From a virus (taxonomy: Duplodnaviria; Heunggongvirae; Uroviricota; Caudoviricetes), in the IMG/VR virus record IMGVR_UViG_2548876858_000010, positions 1 through 8,233 of that record: DNA of 8,233 nt; one strand, 5' to 3'. The notes under the pieces were generated by a model. It saw nothing but the letters and a program-made list of their open reading frames with translations. It was not told the origin of the DNA and made no database searches. This document shows positions 1,238-7,296 of the stretch, one piece after another; the first letter of the stretch is position 1, and every line of letters starts with the position of its first letter. A program made the position numbers and the translations under genes.

Positions 1238-1314
1238 TGGTGCGTTGTACTGGGTTCGAACCAGTGACCGATTGCTTAGAAGGCAATTGCTCTGTCCGGC
1301 TGAGCTAACAACGC
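1238..1314 (-). tRNA. argO: tRNA-Arg, anticodon TCT (77 nt)
   Basis: Manual cloverleaf: GCGTTGT/ACAACGC acceptor, GCTC/GAGC D-stem, anticodon loop CTTCTAA, ACTGG-TTCGAAC-CCAGT T-arm, 3' ACCA encoded. Symbol is by analogy with the Stx-phage ileZ-argN-argO triplet and is not verified. Confidence 0.85.
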
Positions 1315-1327
1315 AGAATACCGATAA

Positions 1328-1404
1328 TGGACCGCCATCGGAGACTCGAACCCCGCGAAACCAGCTTCGAAGGCTGGCGTTCTATCCCGATGAGCTAATG
1401 GCGG
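1328..1404 (-). tRNA. argN: tRNA-Arg, anticodon TCG (77 nt); one D-stem mismatch and discriminator U
   Basis: Manual cloverleaf: CCGCCAT/ATGGCGG acceptor, anticodon stem CCAGC/GCTGG with loop CTTCGAA, T-loop TTCGAGT, 3' TCCA. D-stem GCTC/GAAC has one mismatch. Symbol by analogy only. Confidence 0.75.
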
Positions 1405-1405
1405 T

Positions 1406-1481
1406 TGGTGGCCCTTGCTGGATTTGAACCAGCGACCTGGCGATTATGAGTCGCTCGCTCTCACCACTGAGCTAAAGGGCC
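1406..1481 (-). tRNA. ileZ: tRNA with CAT anticodon, ileX-like (probable lysidine tRNA-Ile2; elongator Met not excluded)
   Basis: GGCCCTT…AAGGGCC acceptor, anticodon loop CTCATAA, T-loop TTCAAAT, CCA encoded. Close to the E. coli ileX sequence from memory. Separated by 1 nt from the next tRNA. Confidence 0.85.
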
Positions 1482-5752: not shown

Positions 5753-6004
5753 TTATTCTTCTGAAAAAGCAGAAAAGCCAGCTTTTATTCCGATCTCTTT
5801 CAATGCCTGTAATGAAGTGACAAACTCACCGTCGCGCAAGATAAATCCGTCCGTCACTCGGGCATCCACAAAATTAATTAACGCAGCCCCATTTTTTTGC
5901 AAACACACAATGCGGTAATGACTAACAATATTTCCATTTTCAACGCACACAGCATAGAGGCCATCTTCACAAAAAATTTTACGCAGTTCTTCGATGTTCA
6001 TCAT
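5753..6004 (-). CDS. rem: Rem-like small prophage protein (83 aa)
   Basis: Track ORF with tandem ATG ATG start and SD GGAAGGA. Same length and same position (between hok and ydfU-like) as rem in Qin; sequence identity not verified. Confidence 0.55.
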   Translation of the reverse strand: MMNIEELRKIFCEDGLYAVCVENGNIVSHYRIVCLQKNGAALINFVDARVTDGFILRDGEFVTSLQALKEIGIKAGFSAFSEE

Positions 6005-6082
6005 CAGAATCCTTCCGGATAATTAGCTCTCCCCTTTAAGGGACCATCCCTCTTATCCCTGCGCGCTACTTAAGTATTTTTG

Positions 6083-6112
6083 ATTCTATTCCGGCACCGT
6101 CCAGAACTTCAA
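6083..6112 (-). promoter_or_regulatory. Candidate sigma70 promoter upstream of rem-like gene (TTGAAG-N18-TAGAAT)
   Basis: Hexamers read directly on the minus strand between the hok terminator and the rem SD. Confidence 0.3.
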
Positions 6113-6122
6113 ACGCGTTGAA

Positions 6123-6150
6123 AATAAAAACAAAAACCCGCCGAAGCGGG
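6123..6150 (-). terminator. Rho-independent terminator of the hok transcript
   Basis: Minus strand CCCGC-UUCG-GCGGG followed by UUUUUGUUUUUAUUUU. Confidence 0.6.
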
Positions 6151-6220
6151 TTAAGTGCGGGTGCGTTGAGGATGCCTGACACATCAGAGGTGGCGAGGGA
6201 TTTCTCCCCCGCCTGGTCTC

Positions 6221-6376
6221 TTACTCCTCAGGTTCGTAAGCTGTGAAGACAGCGACCTCCGTCTGGCCGGTTCGGATTCGTACCTCGCAGAGGTCTTTCC
6301 TCGTTACCAGTGCCGTCACTATGACGGTTAAACAGATGACGATCAGGGCGATTAACATCGCCTTTTGCTGCTTCAT
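6221..6376 (-). CDS. hok: Hok-family type I toxin (51 aa)
   Basis: Manual translation MKQQKAMLIALIVICLTVIVTALVTRKDLCEVRIRTGQTEVAVFTAYEPEE, matching the HokD/RelF sequence as I recall it. Missing from the ORF track because it is under 60 aa. Confidence 0.92.
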   Translation of the reverse strand: MKQQKAMLIALIVICLTVIVTALVTRKDLCEVRIRTGQTEVAVFTAYEPEE

Positions 6377-6432
6377 AGCCTGCTTCTCCTTGACCTTTCG
6401 GTCCGTAAGAGGCTAATCTCTATGTGTCGCAT
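6373..6432 (-). CDS. mok: mok-like leader reading frame (19 codons) ending in TGA overlapping the hok ATG
   Basis: ATG at 6432 with GAGG 8 nt upstream; MRHIEISLLRTERSRRSRL. Start region aligns with the R1 mok start (cuAUG…GAUAGCCUCUUAC) from memory. Shorter than R1 mok. Confidence 0.45.
   Translation of the reverse strand: MRHIEISLLRTERSRRSRL
6390..6419 (+). promoter_or_regulatory. Sok promoter candidate (TTGACC-N18-TAATCT), antisense to the hok/mok translation-initiation region
   Basis: Hexamers read on the plus strand in the position equivalent to the R1 Sok promoter. Confidence 0.45.
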
Positions 6433-6495
6433 AGATATGGCCTCAGATTAATGTTAAGCGTCTTGCAGGACGCGTAATGTTAACTGGGGCTTTTC
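6426..6495 (+). ncRNA. sok: Sok-like antisense RNA (approximate extent; 3' end not resolved)
   Basis: Inferred from the promoter at 6390-6419 and complementarity to the hok mRNA leader. Contains hairpin GCGTC-ttgcag-GACGC; I could not identify a clean terminator. Confidence 0.35.
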
Positions 6496-6552
6496 TCTAT
6501 CTGCCTTTTGGTGTTCATGCCTGAGACAGATAGCCTCAAGCACCCGCAGTCA

Positions 6553-6579
6553 TTCTACTTAACTAAGATTTCCCCGCAA
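6553..6579 (-). promoter_or_regulatory. hok mRNA promoter candidate (TTGCGG-N16-TAGAAT), transcript start near 6546-6548
   Basis: Hexamers read directly. The predicted 5' end GCGGGUGCUUGAGG is complementary to a 3'-UTR element at 6157-6171. Confidence 0.45.
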
Positions 6580-6634
6580 ACCGTTTTTGTCCGGCACAGT
6601 AAATATCCAACTAAACCAATGGCGTTCGCTGTAT

Positions 6635-6814
6635 TTACCGCCAGTATTCAATGCACATGACCGCCATGAACACCCCTAAAAAAAGGGCATTTATATGTCC
6701 AAACATTAATATCAAAACATCAACTTTTTCCATATACCTTGCTGTGAAGATGATGGGCATACATGATGCGAACAACCAGAACGCAACAAACAAAAACTGC
6801 AATGCGTTTTTCAT
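6635..6814 (-). CDS. Small membrane protein (59 aa, two hydrophobic segments) in an AT-rich islet
   Basis: ATG at 6814 with AGGGGG 4 nt upstream; MKNALQFLFVAFWLFASCMPIIFTARYMEKVDVLILMFGHINALFLGVFMAVMCIEYWR. The track lists a GTG-extended 72-aa form (6635..6853). Confidence 0.45.
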   Translation of the reverse strand: MKNALQFLFVAFWLFASCMPIIFTARYMEKVDVLILMFGHINALFLGVFMAVMCIEYWR

Positions 6815-7296
6815 TATTCCCCCTACAATCAATGTGCAATAACATTTAAACACACCTCAATTTAGCCGGACATATAAATATCTAAACCAGAAAAAATCAC
6901 TTACATAGCGTTACAAACTCTTTAGTCTAAATATTCATCGTAAAACATTCCCCATACTTATCAGCCCGTTCTGCGCCAGGTAGCTCATTGCCTTATCTGG
7001 GAATCTGTAATCAGGTTTCCGGATGCTGGTGGATTTTCGCATTTTAGTTGTTCATAAAAGTGCACAGCTTTAACCAGTTCTTCTGATGTAACCGGGACTG
7101 GCGGGGCAGTGAATAAGGCCTGAATTTCATAGTTCGGCCTGTCGTTACAATCCTCTTTTTTCGGTACATATTTCCAGTCACCAGACCACTACTTCCCCTG
7201 AAAGTCCGTAACGCCTTTTTTTCACGTAGCGATATCGCCATGCCACTGTTTTTGCTTGCCCCGCCGTTTCATGCCCTTCCTGATAATTAACCTCGC

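Follow-up and report, generated by a model that had tools for sequence, protein, structure and literature searches.

Is the hok gene in this DNA part of a complete hok/mok/sok module, and could its mRNA be controlled by pairing between its two ends? The DNA under analysis, a stretch of 8,233 nt that is called the window throughout, represents the nin-to-late region of a lambdoid prophage. An earlier note had claimed that all parts of a hok/sok module are present in it, namely an exact Hok-family ORF, a mok-like leader frame, an antisense promoter for Sok, a promoter upstream of hok and an intrinsic terminator, and that the 5′ end of the predicted mRNA (tac) is complementary to an element of the 3′-UTR (fbi). 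All of these parts were found, on the minus strand in every case except the Sok promoter, which is on the plus strand (Table 1). The leader frame differs from what had been expected: an AUG and a Shine-Dalgarno sequence of mok are present, but they open merely a 19-codon ORF and not the long mok of plasmid R1. Our analysis indicates that the locus is very probably a structurally intact hok/sok module of the hokD/hokW type in a lambdoid prophage, with a mechanism like that of R1.

Table 1. Features of the hok/mok/sok locus, with positions in the window
Feature	Position	Strand	Description
hok promoter, candidate -35	TTGCGG 6579..6574 or TTTGCG 6580..6575	-	weak, 3/6 matches
hok promoter, -10 TAGAAT	6552..6557	-	from sequence; kept across 82 distinct hokD/W-type loci
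Predicted full-length hok mRNA	6131..6545	-	about 415 nt; starts at G6545, ends at the T run of the terminator
tac, GCGGGTGCTTGAGG	6547..6534	-	12-nt element GGGUGCUUGAGG at 6534..6545; DNA complementarity extends two bases further, to 6547
tac's partner in the predicted 5′ metastable hairpin	6517..6527	-	fold of 3′-truncated RNA: nt 1-13 with nt 19-29
ucb, AAGCCCC	6486..6492	-	predicted partners: tac (active form), mok Shine-Dalgarno sequence (full-length form)
mok Shine-Dalgarno sequence, GAGG	6441..6444	-	8 nt upstream of the mok AUG; paired with ucb in the full-length fold
Minimal mok	6373..6432	-	AUG 6432..6430, 19 codons, stop codon UGA 6375..6373, which overlaps the start codon of hok (AUGA)
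dcb, GCCUC	6409..6413	-	pairs with GAGGC of the mok Shine-Dalgarno region in the Rfam active-form structure
Sok promoter	6390..6419	+	-35 TTGACC 6390-6395, 18-nt spacer, -10 TAATCT 6414-6419
Predicted Sok antisense RNA	6426..6496	+	about 70 nt; 13-nt single-stranded 5′ tail, long hairpin, U tail
hok Shine-Dalgarno sequence, AGGAG	6386..6390	-	from sequence; homology to the truncated K-12 hokD begins here
hok (hokD) CDS	6376..6221	-	51 aa plus stop, MKQQKAMLIALIVICLTVIVTALVTRKDLCEVRIRTGQTEVAVFTAYEPEE; ORF call, Pfam, RefSeq identity
fbi, CCTCAACGCACCCGC	6171..6157	-	CCUCAA-C-GCACCC-GC, bulged C at 6165
Intrinsic terminator	6125..6152	-	7-bp stem (6152..6135), 4-nt loop, T run

The hok/sok cassette and its prophage setting

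The toxin gene is an exact member of the Hok family, as had been claimed. Its product is identical to RefSeq HokD (WP_000813254.1) over all 51 aa and in a profile search matched Pfam PF01848 (HOK_GEF) with 82.9 bits, where the cut-off is 22 (E = 1.2e-23). In a scan with NCBIfam profiles Hok gave only sub-threshold matches (48.5 bits at a cut-off of 73), and the Pfam match was taken as decisive instead. Toxicity of HokD and HokW as well as antitoxin activity of sokW have been reported (10.1101/2025.08.07.668861, PMC8621323). Codon 46 of hok is UAC and is followed by a G (UACG, 6241-6238, minus strand). A tRNA-like hairpin around this UACG was considered and rejected, as it is unsupported by the local fold (z = -0.88).

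To the leader of hok we applied the Rfam covariance models, a check that the earlier note had proposed. The model RF01794 (‘sok’) matches 6545..6374 on the minus strand over its full length (model positions 1-157) with 106.7 bits, against a gathering score of 59. The matched strand is that of the hok mRNA, and the match stops at the hok AUG; RF01794 thus in practice describes the hok leader. The window thus carries the conserved structured leader of this model, consisting of the tac-ucb hairpin, the Sok-target hairpin and the hairpin formed by the mok Shine-Dalgarno sequence and dcb. Position 1 of the match is G6545, 7 nt past the -10 element of the hok promoter. The predicted RNA of 415 nt has a minimum free energy (MFE) fold of -170.8 kcal/mol (z = -7.97). 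A terminator scan of positions 5900-6900 returned a single terminator-like site, the stem 6152..6135 with its T run, in agreement with the intrinsic terminator that had been proposed.

The promoter upstream of hok is also present, with a conserved -10 and a weak -35. A comparison of 82 distinct hokD/W-type loci showed conservation of the -10 but not of the -35 region, and the cassette is kept as a unit from the -10 through the terminator; the conserved block extends from about 6565 to 6135, with the hok -35 outside. The promoters of hok and Sok both went unflagged in a generic sigma-70 promoter scan of positions 5900-6900, and their assignment therefore rests on homology and conservation.

The antisense promoter for Sok could be assigned in this way, though it was not flagged by the generic scan. 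Its -10 shows only 3/6 consensus matches, at a spacing of 18 nt, and aligns with TAACCT of sokW. This sokW element was replaced in a ‘pro-less’ construct (primer YO-421), and antitoxin activity was lost in Sp5 (PMC8621323). The predicted Sok RNA ends in the U run 6491-6496, folds with -29.5 kcal/mol (z = -5.57) and is the exact complement of the mok Shine-Dalgarno sequence and the mok AUG. Sequence, homology and fold point to a cis-encoded Sok gene with a promoter and a terminator of its own that overlaps the mok translation start.

The cassette is 93-100% conserved apart from its most variable patch, the mok-start hairpin (6439-6418, minus strand), which is the target of the Sok 5′ tail and whose stem sequences vary between alleles. 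By determining specificity, this hairpin may limit cross-talk among the multiple copies in a genome.

The cassette is located in the nin region of the prophage, between early genes and rem-DUF968-rusA-Q, and is co-oriented with them. Downstream of hok on the minus strand, the order is rem, a hypothetical gene, DUF968, rusA, the Q antiterminator gene and a DNA methyltransferase gene, followed by three tRNA genes and the gene of a TerB-domain protein. Upstream of hok, profile searches of the ORFs gave no match to the RelE and RelB families, which bears out the statement that relBE is absent there.

Several neighbouring features were noted on the way. Directly upstream of the cassette, a 72-aa hydrophobic ORF (6853-6635, minus strand) belongs to no Pfam or NCBIfam family; the closest RefSeq prophages that were examined lack it upstream of hokD. 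The sole sigma-70-like site flagged in positions 5900-6900 is at 6112-6083 on the minus strand (TTGAAG, 18 nt, TAGAAT), just past the terminator of hok, upstream of the rem gene (6004..5753), and may be a promoter of rem. The Q antiterminator (3976-3155, minus strand, 273 aa) shows a sub-threshold match to a DnaJ-type CXXCXGXG zinc finger beside its Antiterm domain. The three tandem tRNA genes (1238-1481, minus strand) have the anticodons CAT, TCG and TCT; the TCG tRNA scores only 44 bits in Rfam, the CAT tRNA is annotated by RefSeq as tRNA-Ile in a similar prophage, and the group corresponds to the rare-codon tRNA clusters typical of lambdoid late regions. Beyond the tRNAs are the TerB-domain protein (1097-636, minus strand, 153 aa) and, past this ORF and on the same strand, a full-length match to the sRNA STnc100 (RF02076, 284-464, minus strand) with 117 bits at a gathering score of 47.

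The setting suggests another way in which hok could be expressed. Hok might be an accessory lysis protein that is made chiefly from antiterminated early-right (PR-type) read-through after induction, with its own promoter and the fold-back switch being secondary. We regard this as possible but rather unlikely, and we are just as tentative about the accompanying proposal that read-through, which would run antisense across the Sok promoter, silences Sok. The orientation of hok, which is that of all flanking phage genes, would allow such read-through, no terminator-like site is found between the upstream ORFs and hok, and the hok -35 is outside the conserved cassette. Furthermore, treatment of Sp5 with mitomycin C leads to disappearance of sokW RNA and appearance of HokW in a way that depends on RecA, and phage release is halved when the locus is absent (PMC8621323). 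Against a secondary role of the switch, the -10, tac, fbi and the terminator are kept as a unit across many phage contexts, and tac and fbi covary (see below), which argues that an autonomous transcript and its switch are under selection. Expression by read-through would in any case complement an intact R1-type module rather than exclude it.

The mok leader frame

We did not find a long, R1-like mok frame (about 70 codons over most of hok) in the window. The ORF that starts at the mok AUG ends at 6373, and in the leader both the R1-like frame and the hok frame are blocked by stop codons, with no start codon after the last stop. Compared with phage Rac, for which a 68-aa Mok is annotated, 2 nt are missing just after the mok AUG; the leader is net 1 nt shorter than the in-frame majority type of its relatives. 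In the 143 loci sampled, the mok AUG shares the frame of hok 105 times (64-72 aa) and opens the R1-like overlapping frame 13 times. A short mok of 19-20 codons that ends in AUGA is found in 20 of the 143, on at least five sequence backgrounds: thirteen carry the exact leader of the window, and the other seven are distributed over at least four backgrounds (L027, L064, the hokC-type loci of E. ruysiae and E. whittamii, and Erwiniaceae).

Such a short frame could be read as damage. The locus would then be a silent, decaying copy in which indels have shortened mok to 19 codons and uncoupled hok, resembling the inactive chromosomal hok loci of K-12. The nucleotides missing relative to phage Rac and to the majority type are in line with decay, as is the lack of a usable upstream start in the stop-blocked R1-like and hok frames. 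In addition, no post-segregational killing was found for chromosomal hokA, hokB and hokC in earlier work that is cited in a preprint (10.1101/2025.08.07.668861). Nevertheless, we judge decay to be improbable. Mutagenesis of R1 revealed that translation of mok is required as far as the hok initiation region and is dispensable beyond it; stop codons matter only upstream, and 19 mok codons precede the hok start (PMC9841398). In the window, the leader ORF starts in the Sok target and runs as far as the hok initiation region, which is the functional requirement from R1 genetics, and it reaches the hok AUG exactly. The allele is also common: of 5,426 complete E. coli genomes, about 14% (777 records) have the 73-nt leader of the window with at least 99% identity. 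Strains with exactly this leader allele include E. coli SK1144 and EBJ003. In each of the 13 sampled carriers of this leader allele hok is intact and Hok matches the consensus, and the recurrence of the 19-20-codon AUGA form on at least four other backgrounds likewise argues against decay. Given that R1 requires translation just to the hok start and that the leader allele is common, the short mok of the window is probably a minimal but sufficient coupling ORF and thus a working variant.

The very short leader frame is the sole unusual detail of the locus. The overlap of stop and start codons in AUGA could reflect coupling by termination and reinitiation, with selection acting on ribosome traffic and on the specificity of the Sok target and not on the Mok peptide, a proposal to which we give about equal weight for and against. 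A survey that appeared as a preprint in 2026 explicitly leaves Mok out of its analysis (10.1101/2025.08.07.668861). The plasticity of the mok frame and the minimal mok allele are modest side observations.

A decaying leader is exemplified by the locus of E. coli ECMA0423 (CP178302.1, L126). Unlike the window, this locus combines an identical Hok ORF with a degraded 5′ end, in which GACTGCATGTGGCTATGTGCC replaces tac, and its leader has a 1-nt insertion.

Pairing of tac with fbi and the proposed mechanism

The complementarity with one indel that had been described between tac and fbi corresponds to a 12-bp pairing with a single bulged C (C6165), which is formed in the predicted folds. Of the positions given for the two elements, those of fbi (6157-6171) were confirmed, and those of tac (6535-6548) were one base off. 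The 12-nt core of tac forms a duplex with the 3′-UTR of -21.1 kcal/mol, an energy that was equalled in 9 of 5000 dinucleotide shuffles of the 3′-UTR. Anywhere in the hok mRNA, fbi is the best partner of tac, and the pairing appears in both the MFE and the centroid fold of the 415-nt RNA.

To assess covariation, we sampled 120 loci of viral contigs, collected by the tac motif, and 53 loci of other species, collected by the Hok protein. RNAduplex applied to the 120-nt and 170-nt flanks of 46 loci produced over-extended and uninformative duplexes. Motif-anchored extraction was used instead and yielded 36 distinct tac/fbi combinations; for counting of pairs, an N was placed at the bulge position of the tac and fbi alignment, which keeps sequences without a bulge in register. 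Across these combinations, the 14 scored pairs (the 12-bp core and two outer pairs) are paired in 90.7% of cases, versus 33-53% in slid registers with the partner shifted by 1-3 columns. Changes on both sides were observed. Position 4 changes from UA to CG in eight sequences and position 12 from GC to AU in eight sequences, in each case from Photorhabdus and Pantoea, and Citrobacter has GAAG/CUUC, which is changed on both sides as well; these compensatory changes represent few independent events, because they come mainly from one clade or a few clades. The two outermost pairs, at 6547 and 6546, are unpaired in 15/36 and 21/36 combinations, respectively. Since these two pairs are not conserved, the hok mRNA most likely starts at G6545, the nucleotide with which the Rfam match begins.

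It is hardly credible that tac and fbi, in untranslated sequence rich in G+C, are complementary by chance and that their pairing plays no structural role: the 9 shuffles in 5000 that do as well make the single-sequence statistic less than overwhelming, but fbi is the best partner of tac and pairs with it in both predicted folds, all intact relatives that were examined have the pairing at the homologous position, and the conserved register clearly exceeds the slid ones, with changes on both sides.

The predicted alternative structures resemble those of R1. In the MFE fold of the full-length RNA, GCC.C of ucb (6490-6486) pairs with G.GGC of the mok Shine-Dalgarno region (GAGG, 6444-6441), which corresponds to the closed state described for plasmid R1 (PMC9841398). 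Folding of the 3′-truncated RNA yields a metastable hairpin at the 5′ end, as in the R1 model (PMC9841398), and not the pairing of tac with ucb. As thermodynamic folding of the truncated RNA cannot show the switch, the tac-ucb pairing is taken from the Rfam consensus structure, in which GGG-GCUU pairs with AAGCCCC.

From the R1 paradigm and the anatomy of the locus we infer the transcription, processing, coupling and biological role of the module as follows. The weak promoter would give rise to an hok mRNA of about 415 nt that starts at G6545. During its synthesis, the 5′ hairpin would sequester tac. In the finished RNA, tac would pair with fbi near the 3′ end and ucb would mask the mok ribosome-binding site, and this fold-back form would be stable, untranslated and refractory to Sok. 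Slow trimming of the 3′ end would strip off fbi, upon which tac would move to ucb and the mok start region would become exposed. Abundant but unstable Sok (plus strand, about 6426-6496) would then pair over the Shine-Dalgarno sequence and the AUG of mok, with translation being blocked and the RNA being cleaved by RNase III. If Sok is lost, ribosomes would read the 19 codons of mok, stop at the UGA on the hok AUG and start Hok, which would damage the inner membrane. In the prophage setting, induction would be the likely trigger of Sok loss, as for hokW-sokW of Sp5.

Relation to known hok loci

A closely related locus that has been characterized experimentally is hokW-sokW (with mokW) of the Stx2 phages Sp5 and 933W, with about 91-92% DNA identity to the window from tac to fbi. 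Both loci are prophage-borne, encode a Hok of 51 aa, agree in the sequences of tac and fbi and have an equally placed Sok promoter. They differ in the leader frame, since the upstream AUG of Stx2-phage hokW is in frame and opens an annotated 70-aa ORF (ORF-33c), whereas the 19-codon ORF of the window ends on the hok AUG. Differences are also found in the C-termini of HokW and the Hok of the window (FVDYESEK versus FTAYEPEE), in the sequence past fbi including the terminator, which is unrelated, and in the neighbours, which are EaA-like and hypothetical ORFs at hokW-sokW and rem-DUF968-rusA-Q in the window. In Sp5, hokW-sokW is a functional type I toxin-antitoxin system; HokW appears upon RecA-dependent induction, and the locus doubles phage release (PMC8621323).

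The K-12 copy of hokD (relF), in the Qin prophage, encodes the identical 51-aa protein (WP_000813254.1) and has an identical 3′-UTR with fbi and terminator. The downstream genes are also those of the window (rem, a hypothetical gene and the DUF968 gene ydfU). However, relB-relE is directly upstream of hokD in K-12, and homology to the window begins only at the AGGAG (6390), 14 nt before the AUG. Consequently, K-12 lacks the promoter, tac, ucb, the mok start, the Sok body and the Sok -10. The contrast that had been drawn between the window and a truncated, relBE-fused K-12 hokD is therefore correct: the leader of the window is complete, and that of K-12 starts at the hok Shine-Dalgarno sequence.

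The hok/mok/sok locus of plasmid R1 (parB) has the same architecture. It shares with the window tac, fbi, ucb, dcb and the metastable 5′ hairpin, the antisense Sok over the mok start, the matches to RF01794 and PF01848 and, upstream of the hok AUG, 19 codons of mok. In R1, mok extends over about 70 codons and overlaps hok in a different frame, whereas mok of the window ends at the hok AUG. R1 is a plasmid on which the locus acts in post-segregational killing, whereas the copy in the window is prophage-borne. The identity between HokW and R1 Hok is 44% (PMC8621323).

A common leader architecture and the same tac GGGUGCUUGAGG are also found at the chromosomal hokC/mokC/sokC (gef) loci, in which fbi pairs via G-U wobbles. 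The protein identity of hokC-type loci to the Hok of the window is about 82%, and their leader is about 20 nt shorter, with 149-150 nt from tac to the AUG compared with 169 nt in the window. In most hokC-type loci mok is in frame with hok (69 aa), as in K-12 mokC, whereas the hokC-type copies of E. ruysiae and E. whittamii have a 19-codon mok, as does the window.

Judged by sequence searches, a full-length hokD-type locus is the common state in E. coli. A place that covers at least 80% of a 501-nt query was found in 3,827 of 5,426 complete E. coli genomes (about 70%), with a median of two and a maximum of nine places per genome, of 12,276 E. coli places in all; coverage of at least 80% was also seen for 67 records of the phage collection. 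The locus is of an already known kind, annotated as hokD in thousands of RefSeq genomes. Where the PGAP annotation was inspected (the RefSeq loci L001, L178 and L179), it contained only the hokD CDS, with Sok and mok unannotated. In one genome, a 50-aa hokC-type ORF is itself labelled mokC.

With a textbook R1 mechanism and a sister locus tested in an Stx2 prophage, the locus has little discovery value. The window documents the full-length hokD-type locus against the truncated reference copy of K-12, at a type of locus for which RefSeq annotation omits Sok and mok. Its minimal mok allele, in which only the part required in R1 remains, provides a ready-made test of the translational-coupling model.
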